Below the pieces are notes generated by a model. The model made no database searches, had not been told where the DNA came from, and saw only the letters and a program-made list of their open reading frames with translations. Position numbers and translations under genes: made by a program. This document shows, piece after piece, positions 1 through 5,416 of a stretch of DNA of 64,000 nucleotides. The first letter of the stretch is position 1. Each line of letters starts with the position of its first letter. Where the stretch lies: contig CAVXTP010000022.1 of the NCBI GenBank assembly GCA_963764715.1, forward strand, positions 224,001 through 288,000. The letters are read 5' to 3'. Source of the DNA: an uncultured Acidobacteriota bacterium (GTDB lineage Bacteria > Acidobacteriota > Thermoanaerobaculia > UBA5066 > Gp7-AA6).

Positions 1-588
1 GGTCCCGGCGTAGGGTCCGAGCTCAGCCTGCCAGCGCTTTTCGCCCTCGTTCAGCTTCGCCTCGAACGCGGCGAGGTTCGCGGCGTACTCGGCGGCGCCC
101 GGGGGATCGAGCTTCGTCAGGCGGTCGGCGATCGAGTGCGCGATGACCCGGCCGTTGTCGGGGTCCAGCCAGTAGTGGGGATTGCCGAACGGGTGGACGT
201 CGCCCATGGCGCGGGTCACCGTTCCGGTCGGCCGTTCGAGGATGTCGCAGCCCGACGAGACGTCGAGGTACCCCGACGCCCCCGGCCGGATCTTGTCGTT
301 CCGGCTCTGGTCGATCAAGGGCGGCAGGTAGCCGATCTCGAGCTCGAGGCCCGCCACGATCAGGAGGTCCGCGCGCGAGAGCTTGAGGACGAAGGACGGC
401 TTGGGCTCCACGAAGTGCGGGTCCTGGTACCCCTTCGCCAGCGCGAAGGTCTCGACGCGCTTGCCGCCGACGGCGTCGGCGATCGAGGCGAAGTCCTGGA
501 GGCTGGTGACGATTCGGACGGCAGCGGAAGCCGACGACGCGGACAGGACGAAGAGCGTGGCGGCGAGGAGAGTCATGATGCGTTTCAT
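1..588 (-). CDS. Metal (Zn/Mn-type, cluster A-I) ABC transporter substrate-binding protein; C-terminus runs off the window edge
   Basis: Manual minus-strand translation from ATG at 588: signal peptide MKRIMTLLAATLFVLS, then DPHFVEPKPS, ADLLIVAGLELE and GDVHPFGNPHYWLDP, typical ZnuA/TroA-family motifs. Not in the ORF track. Confidence 0.9.
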   Translation of the reverse strand, partial: MKRIMTLLAATLFVLSASSASAAVRIVTSLQDFASIADAVGGKRVETFALAKGYQDPHFVEPKPSFVLKLSRADLLIVAGLELEIGYLPPLIDQSRNDKIRPGASGYLDVSSGCDILERPTGTVTRAMGDVHPFGNPHYWLDPDNGRVIAHSIADRLTKLDPPGAAEYAANLAAFEAKLNEGEKRWQAELGPYAGT

Positions 589-595
589 GCGTACC

Positions 596-1744
596 TCAAA
601 AAGGATGGGCGCCGTGGGCGCCGATGGCGAACTGGATCTGCAGGAAGCCTTCGTTGGCCCGGATGCCGGGAGCGTACTCCCGGTACCGGTACTCGGCGCG
701 GAGCATCGAGAACTCGCTCGGCATGAACGTGAACGTCGCGGCGACCCCCTTGTCCCGCTGCGTCGCGTCGGTGGCGTGGTCCGAGAACTCGTACCGCGCT
801 CCCGTGTACCAGCGGCGGCCGAGCTGGTAGTCGCCGCCGACGAAGAAGCCCTGCGCGTTCTGCTTGCCGTCGGGCTGCTCGCGCTGGCTCCAGAAGTACT
901 CGCTGCGCAGGATGAACGAGCGGTACGGCTTTCCCTGGAGCGGCTTCCACCGGTAGACGAGATGGACGTTCTGGAGGCTCGTCGTGTTCGTCAGCGACGT
1001 GCCGTTGTGGCCGTACGCGTACGAGAAGCCCATCTCGAGGTTGTGGTCGTCGCCGAAGTCACGGTAGGCGCGGTACTGGCCGTTGTACGAGAGGTCGCCC
1101 TTGGAGGGCGCCGCGAAGAGAGGCTCGGAGCTGCCGTCGACGACCTGGAAGTAGGCCTCCGAGTAGGTGTCCCCTGGAAGCTCGATGACCTTGGAGAGCG
1201 AGATGCCCTCGCCCTCCCAGGTGTCCGGGGAGAGCAGGAGATCGTCGAACGGCAGGGGCTCGTCCACCCACGGCAGGACGTGAAGGTGCATCGTGTTGAC
1301 CTTGCCGAACTGCATCTTGAACTTCCCGGCCTTCGCCTGCATCTGCCAGGGCAGCGACAGGAACGTGACGTAGCCCTCCTCGATGTCGACGCCGTCGTTG
1401 TTGAACGAGAGGAACAGGTCGGCGCGGGCGTACGGATCGACGACCGCCTGGAAAGAGATCTCCGACTCCTCGACCTGGAACGCGGGGGAGGGCTGGACGG
1501 GGTTGTGGCCGACGGACGCGAGGAAGTTTCCGATGACGGCGATCGCCGGATTGAAGAACGTCGGGTTGACGGCGGGGGCCGCCGCCGGAGCGGGCGGGGG
1601 AGGCGGGGGCTCGGGCGCCGGCGTCGGTTCGGGGGCGGGCGCGGCGGGAACGGGCGTCGGTGTCGGCGACGGCGTGTCCTGCGCCCGGGCGCTCAGCGCG
1701 GCGCAGAGCGCCGCGGCGAAAACCAGAGTTGTTCGGACTTTCAA
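596..1744 (-). CDS. Outer-membrane beta-barrel porin-like protein associated with a metal ABC transporter
   Basis: TTG start with SD GGAGGAG; signal peptide, Pro-rich linker, amphipathic beta-strands, C-terminal GAHGAHPF; directly upstream of the binding protein. Confidence 0.8.
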   Translation of the reverse strand: MKVRTTLVFAAALCAALSARAQDTPSPTPTPVPAAPAPEPTPAPEPPPPPPAPAAAPAVNPTFFNPAIAVIGNFLASVGHNPVQPSPAFQVEESEISFQAVVDPYARADLFLSFNNDGVDIEEGYVTFLSLPWQMQAKAGKFKMQFGKVNTMHLHVLPWVDEPLPFDDLLLSPDTWEGEGISLSKVIELPGDTYSEAYFQVVDGSSEPLFAAPSKGDLSYNGQYRAYRDFGDDHNLEMGFSYAYGHNGTSLTNTTSLQNVHLVYRWKPLQGKPYRSFILRSEYFWSQREQPDGKQNAQGFFVGGDYQLGRRWYTGARYEFSDHATDATQRDKGVAATFTFMPSEFSMLRAEYRYREYAPGIRANEGFLQIQFAIGAHGAHPF

Positions 1745-1746
1745 AA

Positions 1747-1820
1747 TCTCCTCCCGGCTTCGACTCGGAGCGGGCCGCGGAATGCGGCCGCGCGTCTTAC
1801 GAGCGGCCGGAAGGAGGAGA
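1747..1820 (-). promoter_or_regulatory. Predicted SD-sequestering stem-loop (translational attenuator) for the porin gene
   Basis: Plus-strand 1747-1758 TCTCCTC/CCGGC is complementary to 1806-1810 GCCGG and 1814-1820 GAGGAGA. On the mRNA the RSPP-coding anti-SD pairs with the porin SD. An inner GGCCGC/GCGGCC hairpin lies at about 1773-1789. Confidence 0.7.
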
Positions 1821-2132
1821 GCGGCCCGGGAGGTCGAGGGCCGCGCGGCGGGAGAGGGCGCCGGTTTCGAGAGCGAAAGCGACGCGGGCGTCGGACGAAT
1901 CCACGGCGAGCGGATCGGGGGCCGGCGTCAGCAGCGCGGCCGCGTGCGTCAGGCAGGCGGGGCAGGCGTGGGGAGCGTCCTCCGGGTGGGCGCTCGAGAG
2001 GCCGCGGTGGGAGGCGAACCCGTCGGCGCCGATCGGCTCCGGGTGCAGGCCGAAGGCGGCGAGCAGCGCCAGCGCCGCGGCCGCCACCAGGACGGCCCGA
2101 ACCCCGGGCGCGGCTCTCATCCGACGCAGCAT
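1797..2132 (-). CDS. DUF2946/CruR/CutF-like exported leader peptide (CxxC plus RxPP arrest-like motif)
   Basis: C-terminal part of ORF 1797..3659: hydrophobic N-terminus VLVAAAALALLAAFGL, HPEDAPHACPACLTH, ends LPGRSPPSGRS*. Alternative ATG at 2120. TAGAAT -10 on the minus strand at 2161-2166. Confidence 0.8.
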   Translation of the reverse strand: MLRRMRAAPGVRAVLVAAAALALLAAFGLHPEPIGADGFASHRGLSSAHPEDAPHACPACLTHAAALLTPAPDPLAVDSSDARVAFALETGALSRRAALDLPGRSPPSGRS

Positions 2133-2158
2133 TTCAGGCTCCCCAAGCAGGCGCCCGC

Positions 2159-2200
2159 GCATTCTATTCCGCGGAGGCCTCCGGGCGCTGCGTAGAATGC
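2159..2200. promoter_or_regulatory. Back-to-back sigma70-type -10 elements with a central palindrome
   Basis: GCATTCTA (2159-2166) and TAGAATGC (2193-2200) form an inverted pair, giving TAGAAT on each strand. Perfect 12-bp palindrome CGGAGGCCTCCG at 2172-2183. Confidence 0.55.
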
Positions 2201-2204
2201 CGTC

Positions 2205-2867
2205 GTGACCACCGGTCCCCACGCCCTCGCGGCCCCCGGGCACGCGGCCCCGGCGGCCTCCGAGGCCCTGCGCCGGCGCATGCACTGGCTGCTCGGCCTG
2301 ACCTTCGTGCACGTCTTCGGCGAGGGCGGCCTCGCCCTCTTCGAGGCGGCCCGGACGGGCAGCCTCGCCCTGCTCGCTTTCGGCCTCGAGAGCGTCATCG
2401 AGGGGGGCGCGGCGCTCCTGGCCGTGAGGCACCTGCGCCACCTCGCCGACGAGGAGGAGGACCACGCGAGGCGCGACCAGATGCTCGCCCGCTGGATCGG
2501 CGTGTCGTTCCTCCTGCTCGCGACCTACACGCTGGGGCGGGGGACCTACGAGCTCATCGCGGGCAATCGCGTCGAACCGAGCGTGCTCGGCCTTCTGCTC
2601 ACGATCTTCGCCACGTTCGGCATGCCCGTCGTCGGGTACTTCAAGTGGAAGACGAGCCGGAGCCTTGGCAGCAAGGGACTGGCGGCCGAGGCCAAGGAGT
2701 CGATCGCCTGCTCGATCGACTCGGGGCTCACGATGCTGGCGATGGTCGCCGGTCTGCTGGCGTTGCCGCACTGGATCGACCCCGCCCTCTCGCTCCTGAT
2801 GGTGCCGTGGTTCCTGCGGGAAGGCCTCGCCCACGTGCGCGGCCGCGTCCACGCGCACGTCCACTGA
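2205..2867 (+). CDS. Cation diffusion facilitator (CDF) family transporter, TM domain only
   Basis: 5-6 TM helices; SLALLAFGLESVIE, LAAEAKESIAC and WIDP motifs; His-rich tail HVRGRVHAHVH; no C-terminal cytoplasmic domain. Confidence 0.75.
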   Translation: MTTGPHALAAPGHAAPAASEALRRRMHWLLGLTFVHVFGEGGLALFEAARTGSLALLAFGLESVIEGGAALLAVRHLRHLADEEEDHARRDQMLARWIGVSFLLLATYTLGRGTYELIAGNRVEPSVLGLLLTIFATFGMPVVGYFKWKTSRSLGSKGLAAEAKESIACSIDSGLTMLAMVAGLLALPHWIDPALSLLMVPWFLREGLAHVRGRVHAHVH

Positions 2868-2975
2868 GACGAGGCTCCGCCGCGGGAGGGCGGGCGGGGC
2901 TCCGTTGTAGAATGGGCGCCGCCTGAATCCCCGGACAGGGTCAGCGCATATATCGTGTCGAAGGAGCATTTGCCG

Positions 2976-3305
2976 ATGTCGAATCCCAACGTTTCCCAGG
3001 TCTCCGACGCGAGCTTCGACGGGGACATTCTCAAGAGCCAGGTGCCCGTGCTGGTCGATTTCTGGGCGCCCTGGTGCGGACCCTGTCGCTCCGTCGCACC
3101 GATCGTGGACGACCTGGCGACGCAGTACGCGGGCAAGATCAAGGTCGCGAAGATCAACGTCGACGAGTCGACCGAGGTCGCCATGCGCTACCAGATCACC
3201 TCCATCCCCACCTTCATCCTCTTCAAGAACGGCCAGGTGGCGGACCGGGCCCTCGGCGCGCTGCCGAGGAGCGAGTTCGTCAAGCTCATCGACCGCAACC
3301 TCTGA
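2976..3305 (+). CDS. trxA: Thioredoxin
   Basis: VLVDFWAPWCGPC, SIPT; SD AAGGAG at 2961; -10 TAGAAT at 2908. Confidence 0.97.
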   Translation: MSNPNVSQVSDASFDGDILKSQVPVLVDFWAPWCGPCRSVAPIVDDLATQYAGKIKVAKINVDESTEVAMRYQITSIPTFILFKNGQVADRALGALPRSEFVKLIDRNL

Positions 3306-3329
3306 GGCCGGGGCCGTCCCGGCGTTTCG

Positions 3330-3358
3330 AAAAGGGCCCCCGCGGGCCCTTTTTCTTT
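3330..3358 (+). terminator. Intrinsic terminator after trxA
   Basis: AAAAGGGCCC-ccgc-GGGCCCTTTT followed by a T-rich tail. Confidence 0.85.
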
Positions 3359-3443
3359 GGCCCGATGTAAATTCGCGGCGCGCCGGCCTCGGAGGAGGAC
3401 GGTCGGGGAAGAAGGCTCCGGCGGGACCGGTTGGAAGGGGCGC

Positions 3444-4688
3444 ATGAAGAAACCACTGTGGGTGGCCGGCGTCGTGCTCGTGGTCGGCGCGGGCGCCTTT
3501 CTGCTGCTCGGAAGTCGGAAGAAGGCCGAGCCCAAGTACCGCACGGCCAGGGTCGAGCGTGGCAACGTCACGCAGACGGTCGCGGCGACGGGCACCCTGT
3601 CCGCGGTGACGACGGTCAAGGTGGGGAGCGTCGTCTCGGGCAACGTCGCGGCCCTCCACGCCGACTTCAACAAGAAGGTCAAGAAGGGCGACCTCCTCGC
3701 GGAGCTCGACCCGGCGCCGTTCATGGACAGGCTGGCTCAGGTGCGCGCGGCCCTGGAGAAGGCGCAGGTCGACCTCCGCAACTCCGAGATCTCCCTGCGG
3801 CGGCAGAAGGCCCTCTGGGACGAGAAGCTCGCGGCGCAGGCGGACCTCGACCAGGCGCAGGCCAACTTCGACTCGGCCGCCGCCGCCGTCAACCAGGCGA
3901 AGGCGTCGCTCGCCCAGGCCGAGACGGACCTGCGCAACAGCCGGATCACGGCCCCGATCGACGGCGTCGTCGTCGACCGCCAGTACGACGTGGGCCAGCC
4001 GGTGGCGGCGTCCTTCACCGCCCCCACGATCTTCACGATCGCGCAGGACCTCACGAAGATGCAGGTCTCGGCCGACGTCTCGGAGTCCGACATCGGTATG
4101 TGCAAGGTCGGCCAGCCGGTCCGGTTCACCGTCGACGCCTACCCCGACGAGACCTTTCGCGGGAAGATCGCGCAGATCCGGTTGAACGCGACCGTGAACC
4201 AGAACGTCGTGACTTATCCCGTGATCATCGAGGTCGACAATCCCGATCTCGCCCTCCGGCCGAGCATGACGGCGAACGTGTCGATCGACGTCGCCACGGT
4301 ACGCGACGTGCTGCGCGTTCCGAACGCCGCCCTGCGCTTCAAGCCGGAAGAGTCGGCGGCCTCTCCGGCCGCGGCGGCGGGCGGCGCCTCGGTCGAGGAG
4401 CGCGCGGCGCGCGGGACCGGAAGCGGGCCGGCCGGTGCGGCGCGCCAGTTCGACCGGTCCGGGGCCGGCGGCAAGCCGAAGCGGCCGGGGCAGACGGTCT
4501 ACACGCAGGGGCCCGGGGACAACGGCGCCCTGAAGCCGGTCGAGATTCGCGGGGGAATCACCGACGGGCGCTACACGCAGGTGGTCTCGGGAGATCTGAA
4601 GGAGGGGGACACCGTCGTCGTCGGTCTCGTGACGGCGAAGGTCGATTCCGCGGCGGGACGCAGCCCCGTGGGCGGCCGGAGATTCTGA
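3444..4688 (+). CDS. MacA-type periplasmic adaptor (membrane fusion protein)
   Basis: N-terminal TM anchor, [49 protein letters not shown]. Confidence 0.92.
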
Positions 4689-4690
4689 CG

Positions 4691-5416
<726 letters not shown>

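Follow-up and report, generated by a model that had tools for sequence, protein, structure and literature searches.

Metal-sensing leader peptides that act through ribosome arrest have been demonstrated experimentally only for copper, in two proteobacteria, and it can be asked whether a comparable device governs the import of another metal in another phylum. This question is raised by a locus at the beginning of a 64,000-nucleotide stretch of DNA from an uncultured acidobacterium (Acidobacteriota; Thermoanaerobaculia; UBA5066; Gp7-AA6; GenBank assembly GCA_963764715.1, contig CAVXTP010000022.1, positions 224,001 to 288,000 of the forward strand), which is called the window throughout and whose positions are numbered from its first letter. 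On its minus strand, a small open reading frame (ORF) of 111 codons precedes a gene for an outer-membrane porin and a gene for a ZnuA-family metal-binding protein. A preliminary description, made from the sequence alone, had proposed that this ORF encodes a leader on which the ribosome stalls according to metal status, thereby exposing the porin gene's Shine-Dalgarno (SD) sequence. At the level of sequence, every prediction of that description that could be examined in silico appears to be supported, and the ORF is probably, although by no means certainly, a regulatory leader of the CruR/CutF type, in which metal-sensing arrest at an R-S-P-P motif would free the SD sequence of the porin.

A conserved leader gene

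The small ORF (1797..2132, minus strand, with its stop codon at 1799-1797) is confirmed to be a real gene. It forms the tail end of a spurious 620-residue open frame (1797..3659), long frames of this kind being a consequence at this locus of the 70% GC content of the genome. The preliminary description had delimited a product of about 110 residues within this longer frame, and the delimitation was correct: the 111-residue translation is conserved over its full length in the genus and family, several orthologs carry a stop codon 3-33 nt upstream of the same ATG, and a six-frame search recovered a full-length leader in 35 of the 36 other genomes of the genus. In the two other families of the order, the six-frame search yielded no genome with a match better than E = 0.004. 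A profile built from 30 orthologs detected the leader, nearly always as a single copy, in 47 of 301 genomes of the class (a tally that includes G064, a genome flagged as unpublished), among them 40 of the 43 genomes of the window's family and 6 of the 26 of a second family, all six from one genus. These 30 orthologs are what remained of 34 loci fetched from the genus once four had been excluded, three with a leader split over two frames (L024, L030, L034) and one with internal stops and no match to the hidden Markov model (L035). The split, stop-bearing or degenerate leaders of these four loci and of L088 and L089 are assembly errors or decayed copies.

When 1.84 billion representative sequences were searched with HMMER, just 104 proteins were returned at E <= 0.001, nearly all of 100-125 residues. 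A word-indexed search gave 118 clusters, none with a Pfam domain and all named ‘hypothetical protein’, from Thermoanaerobaculia or from metagenome-assembled genomes (MAGs) of Acidobacteriota, and no family of Pfam or NCBIfam reaches threshold with the leader. Since it escapes the Pfam model, its annotation reads ‘hypothetical’ in every record seen. The closest clusters in the ESM Atlas, which serve as leads only, are unnamed proteins of about 111-117 residues from Gemmatimonadota and Nitrospirota, and in one near cluster DUF2946 is present on 13% of the members.

Apart from ten columns that are invariant among the 30 orthologs (G28, H30, P31, E32, C57, C60, G103, R104, P106 and P107), the peptide evolves fast. 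At its N-terminus, a basic MLRRMR n-region is followed by a hydrophobic h-region of 16 residues (residues 12-27; 2052..2099, minus strand), read from the sequence and conserved in the alignment, where the preliminary description had noted a signal-like or transmembrane-like segment; this N-terminus is a candidate export signal or signal-anchor. Directly behind it lies GLHPEP (residues 28-33; 2034..2051, minus strand), with four of the invariant residues, and 188 of 213 family proteins carry G[LMF]H[PA]E along with the other two motifs. The segment HPEDAPHACPACLTH spans residues 50-64 and contains a candidate metal site, H55-A-C57-P-A-C60, of the form H-x-C-x-x-C (1953..1970, minus strand). Its two cysteines, already pointed out in the preliminary description, are present in 30 of 30 orthologs and H55 in at least 90%, and a histidine occupies the position two residues before the first cysteine in 165 of 180 proteins. 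The third motif, GRSPP (residues 103-107; 1812..1826, minus strand; codons GGC CGC UCU CCU CCU), had been described as terminal; it is present, but not at the very C-terminus, being followed by two to five residues, which in the window are S-G-R-S before the stop codon.

A spacer of fixed length and a motif avoided by the proteome

The family gathered around the leader comprises 213 proteins, 201 of which carry both CxxC and RxPP. The segment between these two motifs (43 residues between CxxC and R104 in the window; 1824..1952, minus strand) is hypervariable and of low complexity, with a mean pairwise identity of 24%, yet its length is fixed, at 43 residues in 193 of the 201 proteins and 42 in the other eight; the segment from GLHPE to CxxC, unlike this spacer, varies from 22 to 40 residues. 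Exactly three residues separate PP from the end of the protein in 148 of the 201. C57-C60 would stand 46-49 residues from the peptidyl-transferase centre when P106 is in the P site.

The motif that closes the spacer is GRSPP in 107 of the 201 proteins and GRAPP in 84. In a sample of 1312 long ORFs of this organism with high GC3, comprising 685k residues, RSPP occurs once against 12.9 expected occurrences, RGPP four times against 20.9 and RAPP 11 times against 28.7, while the control tetrapeptides ASPP, RLPP and AAPP occur 18, 24 and 75 times against 20.2, 21.4 and 44.9, respectively. REPP, with 2 occurrences where 13.1 would be expected, and KAPP, with 4 where 10.2 would be, are likewise depleted in this sample (G000). 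Taken with the family alignment, these counts imply that the tetrapeptide most avoided in the genome is kept invariant at the end of the leader. According to Fujiwara et al. (PMC12992588), RSPP ranks among the tetrapeptides most depleted across bacterial proteomes, and arrest of ApdA and ApdP partially tolerates the Ala-to-Ser change that produces it; the same authors, citing Morici et al., describe a RAPP-arrested ribosome as holding peptidyl-...RAP-tRNA in its P site and Pro-tRNA in its A site. On these grounds, RSPP is considered a candidate arrest motif of the leader.

Pairing of the candidate arrest codons with the porin Shine-Dalgarno sequence

The gap between leader and porin measures 52 nt in the window and 47-74 nt in the window's family, where it is almost fully base-paired. 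As the preliminary description had indicated, the porin gene starts at a TTG codon (1744-1742), six bases past the SD sequence GGGAGGAG (1755-1748; the two together at 1742..1755, minus strand). A long hairpin surrounds the leader stop codon (1748..1820, minus strand), as seen in the minimum-energy fold, in the consensus fold of the 5 closest orthologs and in an arm-swap test. Its outer helix consists of the S-P-P codons and the SD sequence, its middle part of the tail codons and the region 5' of the SD sequence, and an inner GC hairpin lies at about 1793-1770. The complementarity that had been proposed between the S-P-P codons and the SD region is found in the mRNA segment 5'-UCUCCUCCUUCCGGC (1820-1806), which matches GCCGGGAGGAGA (1758-1747) with a 2-nt bulge, and it is realized when positions 1860-1720 are folded, CUCCUCCUUCCGG (the S-P-P-S-G codons) being paired with CCGGGAGGAG. 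The energy of this fold is -64.2 kcal/mol (z = -2.74), and one of 200 shuffled sequences was equally stable.

Among the genus loci, the minimum-energy fold pairs at least four of the five SD-core bases with the S-P-P codons in 26 of 30, and the codons themselves depart strongly from genomic usage. The first proline is encoded by CCU in 25 of 30 loci, as against 3.5% of proline codons genome-wide; UCU is used at the serine position in 15 of 22 (2% genome-wide) and GCU at the alanine position in 5 of 8 (2.8%); and for the second proline CCG, the commonest codon in the genome (59%), occurs in only 1 of 30. This choice of codons at S-P-P amounts to the string CUCCUCC. Moreover, the two arms co-vary. 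When 3' arms were exchanged between loci, considering only pairs whose leaders are at most 60% identical, the mean cost was 14.6 kcal/mol, positive in 98% of 1337 pairs, as compared to 1.7-2.7 kcal/mol and 57-69% positive for dinucleotide-shuffled controls. The hairpin is kept by lineage-specific, complementary, co-varying arms, and the test of stem covariation called for in the preliminary description came out in its favour.

An earlier, one-sided version of the arm swap (mean z about -1) was discarded because the length and composition of the arms acted as confounders. A covariance model from 5 orthologs found the site in most loci along with antisense and off-site matches, and its alignment was not used for pair counts. 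RNAalifold detected no structure in a MAFFT alignment of 28 orthologs, this alignment not being a structural one, and no Rfam family was found within positions 1-3000 of the window.

Distribution across the Acidobacteriota

The order leader-porin is observed in 47 of 54 loci, with ZnuA next in 44 of these, the remaining three loci ending first, and the permease is found in 10 of the 11 loci that were fetched with longer flanks. The porin family is broader than the leader profile, being detected in at least 152 of 301 genomes and at least 67 of 107 genera (a floor, as a stricter first look was used; the unpublished genomes G064, G173 and G208 are included), and the regions upstream of the porin were therefore examined in profile-negative genomes. 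Eighteen such loci were fetched, 17 of which hold upstream sequence, and in 13 of the 17, from seven other families, an ORF with the layout CxxC-(41-44)-R[A/S/G]PP precedes the porin; in these 13 distant leaders, RSPP, RAPP or RGPP lies 2-6 residues before the stop codon.

A scan of the whole collection of GTDB genomes with the porin profile was then evaluated on its 80 best loci, from Thermoanaerobaculia, Vicinamibacterales and MAGs labelled gp5, gp6 and gp22, with some contigs overlapping the earlier set. ZnuA lies downstream of the porin in 79 of these best 80 loci, and a CxxC-(42-44)-R[A/S/G]PP leader lies upstream in 66 of the 74 that have at least 700 nt of upstream sequence. Over 68 leaders, the motifs are RAPP in 32, RSPP in 31 and RGPP in 5, with spacings of 42 in 4, 43 in 33 and 44 in 31. 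Six-frame translation of the best 80 loci yields 3,881 ORFs with a length of 60 residues or more, and 77 of these have this layout, only 7 of them elsewhere. The upstream CxxC/RxPP ORF that the preliminary description had predicted for orthologous porin operons is found in the genus, in other families and in the best 80 porin loci and, with leaders upstream of this wider porin set, the peptide module appears to be phylum-wide. For 57 modelled loci of the wider set, the SD sequence is mostly paired in 47, and with any base under the arrested ribosome in 31.

A Vicinamibacterales-type subfamily of leaders was also noted (L147, L152, L156, L161, L162, L164, L165, L167, L169, L174 and L176, mostly MAGs labelled Vicinamibacterales), in which FEHHDLxCHxKxPxHCxxC is followed by 44 residues and GRSPP, and in which candidate ligands (His, Cys and acidic residues) are far more numerous than in the leader of the window.

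Relation to known arrest leaders

The preliminary description had likened the leader to CruR and CutF. In the case of CruR (Bp2923) of Bordetella pertussis, the prototype of DUF2946/PF11162, whose hallmark is a CXXC-to-RAPP spacing of 45, plus or minus 1-2 (PMC9426467), the likeness extends to both layout and spacing. Each is the small first gene of a metal-related operon, with an N-terminal signal (a candidate one here), a CXXC motif, a length-conserved spacer (45 residues in CruR, 43 here) and RxPP about three residues before the stop codon, and each precedes an outer-membrane uptake protein, a TonB-dependent transporter controlled through the CXXC-45-RAPP layout in CruR and the presumed target here. 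CruR differs in its RAPP motif, 162-nt intergenic region and Rho termination, in the relief of its arrest by copper and in the dispensability of its signal peptide (PMC9426467), whereas the present leader has RSPP (RAPP in relatives), a 52-nt, fully structured gap, arrest codons that pair with the SD sequence, a porin and a ZnuA-type ABC (ATP-binding cassette) importer as putative targets, a host in the phylum Acidobacteriota and a score that misses the Pfam threshold.

CutF of Rhodobacter capsulatus is an exported nascent sensor that stalls at a C-terminal proline motif, whereby the stem-loop occluding the SD sequence of the next gene is melted (PMC9973294), as is proposed here, and its arrest is prolonged by metal (preprint 10.1101/2025.02.05.636593); a stem-loop of this SD-shielding type is found in 26 of 30 genus loci and in 22 of 57 in the wider set. 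CutF differs in having CxxxC, PPP, a dependence on EF-P, an intergenic stem-loop and a copper oxidase, hence detoxification, as its target (PMC9973294). Here, the leader has CxxC and PP only, the anti-SD consists of the arrest motif's own codons and the target would be an import system. The survey in which CutF-like proteins were collected lists 5,334 that adjoin metal-homeostasis genes, not all of them copper-specific according to its authors, with OEP/RND as the commonest neighbour (PMC9973294).

Genes that precede efflux operons of the RND (resistance-nodulation-division) type form a further point of comparison. The DUF2946 gene CC2720 precedes czrCBA in Caulobacter (PMC4176598), a leader-before-RND layout that recurs in 7 of the 54 loci, and the CzcI-type genes upstream of czc/czr RND operons (cited in PMC9973294) resemble the leader in that context; unlike them, the window and 47 of the 54 loci have a porin, ZnuA and permease. 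ApdA, ApdP and SecM share with the leader R-[A/G/S]-P-P near the C-terminus of a small protein, a localisation signal (a candidate one in the leader) and the depletion of the motif in the proteome, but they monitor Sec or YidC and have neither a Cys/His site nor a ruler (PMC12992588), whereas the context here is metal transport. The surveys had anticipated CutF-like leaders for metals other than copper (PMC9973294) and RAPP-containing upstream ORFs before diverse genes (PMC12992588); their main texts name neither ZnuA, zinc and porins nor Acidobacteria as leader hosts. The present system was not found in the literature on DUF2946, on stalling upstream ORFs of ZnuA or on zinc- or ABC-related arrest peptides, although large supplementary tables may list accessions.

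Proposed mechanism

In the arrest mechanism that is regarded here as probable, a short exported nascent peptide would detect metal by means of H-x-C-x-x-C, the invariant His and Glu of GLHPEP probably contributing, and would halt its own ribosome at R-S-P-P while peptidyl-...RSP-tRNA occupies the P site and Pro-tRNA the A site. The fixed 43-residue spacer would set the emergence of the Cys/His site from the ribosome and translocon at the time of arrest, and metal binding at this site would alter the pulling force or folding that terminates it. The codons UCU-CCU-CCU and three or four tail codons would constitute the 5' arm of the hairpin, and the porin SD sequence its 3' arm. With P106 in the P site, the ribosome would occupy the mRNA roughly as far as the stop codon and hence the entire 5' arm, so that arrest would mean an open SD sequence and translation of the porin from its weak TTG start, followed by expression of ZnuA and the permease through coupling or relief of polarity. 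As the region that encodes the porin linker is 61% C, Rho-dependent polarity may add to this control. Run-through and termination would allow the hairpin to re-form and leave the operon silent. Metal could either prolong the arrest, in the logic of CutF, or relieve it, in that of CruR.

Several observations weigh against this scheme. Equilibrium folding suggests that arrest would release the SD sequence only in part, and is only modestly supportive: over 53 loci, the mean unpaired probability of the SD core is 0.127 in the free RNA, 0.106 with the ribosome 30 nt upstream and only 0.314 with the ribosome on PP, exceeding 0.5 in the latter state in just 7 of the 53 (L066, whose modelled spacer is longer than 120 nt, was excluded from these counts and from the arm swaps). 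For 250 other GGAGG genes of the genome, the SD sequence has a mean unpaired probability of 0.289 and a median of 0.218. The rare U-ending codons could serve slow decoding instead of pairing. Among 57 loci modelled outside the window's family, only 22 show the SD sequence paired to the S/A-P-P codons, the longest spacers measure 158 nt and ATG is the prevailing start codon; the scarcity of this pairing suggests that release of the SD sequence may be lineage-specific, and the design in which the arrest codons act as anti-SD is best supported in the window's lineage.

The relation to DUF2946 is a further difficulty. A search against this family, proposed in the preliminary description, did not succeed: the window's leader scores 8.6 bits against PF11162 (E = 4), missing the gathering threshold of 23.7 bits, five of the 30 orthologs match at E <= 10, the best at 0.049, and one of the 13 distant leaders scores 18.0 bits, also below threshold. 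The rest of the window's own genome gave only a weak match to PF11162, and across the phylum just 3 of 301 genomes have a match above its cut-off. When the leader was aligned by hhalign with four PF11162-matching proteins of Acidobacteriota, of which three exceed the cut-off, the probability was 5.6% over 11 columns and only CxxC was aligned; the CXXC-to-RAPP spacing in these four proteins is 43-44. By sequence, the locus shares every defining motif feature of DUF2946 (CxxC, RxPP near the end, a fixed spacing and the position of first gene in a metal operon), yet fails the Pfam threshold, and the likeness could be convergent. Finally, in 7 of the 54 loci the same leader heads an efflux operon, which clashes with the logic that low metal turns uptake on. 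An importer as target would argue for metal relieving the arrest and an exporter for metal prolonging it, with the same leader on both, so that, given the efflux operon in sister species, the idea that metal status sets uptake still lacks a coherent logic.

Alternative explanations

Transcription attenuation as in CruR, where arrest at RSPP would mainly block Rho, relief by metal would lead to Rho termination before or within the porin gene and SD pairing would be secondary, is unlikely, although several points favour it. CruR, with its CXXC-45-RAPP layout, likewise controls an uptake gene (PMC9426467), the 5' coding region of the porin (1660-1541) is rut-like, with 61% C and a C/G ratio above 2, and the distant lineages have spacers of 90-158 nt without pairing between the SD sequence and the arrest codons. 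The short, almost fully base-paired spacer of the window's family (only 47-74 nt) and a codon selection that specifically indicates SD complementarity stand against it. The two modes of control could act together.

Plain translational coupling is quite improbable. Here, the ORF would encode a small exported accessory protein that binds metal, such as a chaperone or anchor, and the terminating ribosome would open the hairpin with no programmed, metal-dependent arrest. Any terminating ribosome would indeed open it, the signal-like N-terminus and the Cys/His motif would suit such a protein, and programmed arrest is itself only a candidate. An accessory protein would hardly be expected to be hypervariable and of low complexity (24% identity) and yet fixed in length, nor to keep R[A/S/G]PP invariant 2-5 residues before its stop codon when this is the most avoided tetrapeptide class in the proteome; in addition, no Pfam or structural family was detected for the leader.

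It is very improbable that the leader is a secretion monitor of the SecM/ApdA type, reporting on Sec, Bam or envelope status and not on metal, even though the combination of a RAPP-like C-terminus with a candidate N-terminal localisation signal is that of monitoring substrates (PMC12992588): the genes downstream are a porin, ZnuA and permease or an RND operon, never sec or yidC, and the invariant H-x-C-x-x-C and the fixed ruler mark the DUF2946 class of metal sensors. That the ORF is spurious and the match of its proline codons to a strong SD sequence fortuitous deserves practically no credence, for although DNA of 70% GC yields many long frames, any CCUCC pairs with GGAGG and many genes of this genome have an SD sequence sequestered in silico, the idea is refuted by conservation of the protein under synonymous change across two classes, by its ten invariant columns, fixed spacing and codon selection, and by the presence of the layout at the expected place in 66 of 74 loci as against 7 of 3,881 background ORFs.

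The putatively controlled operon and its neighbours

The operon that metal-sensing arrest of the leader would control was identified in the preliminary description as that of a porin and a ZnuA/TroA-type binding protein, and both identifications hold. The 382-residue porin (596..1744, minus strand) has a signal peptide, a Pro/Thr-rich linker, a 16-strand barrel and the C-terminal sequence IGAHGAHPF. Its AlphaFold2 model, built with 38 orthologs, has a pLDDT of 74 and shows the signal helix, a disordered Pro/Thr linker and 16 strands, and it is matched by Foldseek to Omp32, OmpT, OprP and MOMP with a probability of 1.0 and TM-scores of 0.5-0.62; the model thus indicates a porin of the 16-18-strand barrel type, for which the Pfam match, to BBP2, is sub-threshold only. 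In the 47 porin-context loci, the modelled starts, which are approximate in a few loci such as L055, are TTG in 21, GTG in 11, ATG in 9 and CTG in 6. In the His-containing C-terminus (596-625), G375, H377, G378, A379, H380 and F382 are invariant in 38 orthologs, and its codons form a terminator-like hairpin with a T-run (622-608) right before the ZnuA start, a kind of site of which shuffled sequences also yield one. The RNA that encodes the Pro/Thr/Ala linker (1541-1680) is 54-61% C with a C/G ratio above 2, a possible Rho-utilisation site if the gene is untranslated.

The binding protein (1..588, minus strand) is a ZnuA-family protein of cluster A-I with 309 residues, the first 196 of which lie inside the window. 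In the window with its flanks (L001), Pfam gave ZnuA at 3.6e-51 and ABC-3 at 1.1e-36. The closest solved structure is Synechocystis ZnuA (2.6e-22), with DPH, NPH and YHNSW aligned, the histidines of which are presumably the Zn ligands of ZnuA; no His-rich loop was seen in the protein, and no NCBIfam equivalog was reached, AztC being the best at 97 bits, below its cut-off. The ABC-3 permease lies just beyond the end of the window as the last gene of the operon, followed by a convergent ribF (L001 10560-12588, minus strand). The operon, in the window and flanking L001, has no gene for an ABC ATPase, which must consequently be encoded elsewhere or shared.

Divergently from the leader, a 220-residue efflux protein of the CDF (cation diffusion facilitator) family is encoded (2205..2867, plus strand; Pfam Cation_efflux at 4.9e-09), with a homolog in the upstream flank of 45 of the 54 loci. 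A candidate -10-like hexamer, TAGAAT (2161..2166, minus strand), lies about 25 nt upstream of the leader ATG, and GGAATA[G/C]AAT is conserved at this position in most of the 54 loci; a consensus promoter scan gave no full sigma-70 match. A second -10-like hexamer (TAGAAT/TACAAT), back to back with it (2189-2205 vs 2161-2170), precedes the GTG of the CDF gene by about 6-7 nt, a proximity that suggests a leaderless or nearly leaderless CDF mRNA. The stretch between the two hexamers showed no conserved palindrome of the operator kind, in keeping with post-transcriptional control. Further along, translation reading alone suggests a 116-residue thioredoxin-like ORF with WCGPC (2955-3305, plus strand) and ORFs that resemble a membrane-fusion protein and an ABC ATPase (3357-5416, plus strand).

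The candidate metal and the efflux context

Zinc is the likeliest metal to be sensed, judging from the His3Asp type of ZnuA and from two features that fit a divalent cation, namely the CDF gene next door and the heavy-metal RND operon found as an alternative. Together with the invariant His and Glu, the H-x-C-x-x-C site would be suitable for Zn(II), but CxxC is also a classic Cu(I) site.

In the RND alternative, which is found in sister species (L010, L013, L015, L022, L023, L032 and L033), the same leader heads an operon in the order OEP (TolC-like), CusB-type HlyD_D23 protein and AcrB-family RND transporter (ACR_tran). The divergent CDF gene is retained in six of the seven loci, and none of the five RND-context genomes that were scored in the porin search has a porin match. 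In four of the seven, an ORF of 32-56 residues, whose SD sequence is paired to the S-P-P codons, occupies the former porin start and terminates in a TTGA that overlaps the OEP start, which suggests that the exporter is coupled to the same switch. L097 and L098 also have the RND context, the RND gene of L098 appearing split over several frames.

A broader proposal, offered tentatively and with somewhat less than even confidence, is that of a portable nascent-chain metal sensor, probably for zinc, that would be timed by its ruler, would use its arrest codons as anti-SD in the window's lineage, would be ancestral to the porin-ZnuA importer in at least two classes and would have been re-plugged onto an RND exporter. 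The ruler of 42-44 residues would bring the His/Cys site to the exit of the ribosome or translocon as R[A/S/G]PP reaches the peptidyl-transferase centre, and in the window's lineage one 12-nt element would both halt the ribosome and serve as the switch.

Implications

The doubling of arrest codons as anti-SD makes the mechanism testable by a few synonymous and compensatory mutations, and the natural swap of the leader between import and export operons in sister species provides a ready-made experiment on how the polarity of a sensor is set. The fixed 43-residue ruler also bears on at which point and by what means a nascent chain detects its ligand, a question still open. A portable sensor, if that proposal is true, would imply either that the polarity of the response is reversible or that import and export genes are co-induced. 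What sets this compact and highly conserved locus apart is that the genes under control would be a zinc/manganese-type importer together with its own porin and, if the arrest reading is true, the leader mechanism known from copper sensing would be extended to soil Acidobacteriota, where the metal sensed is probably zinc.

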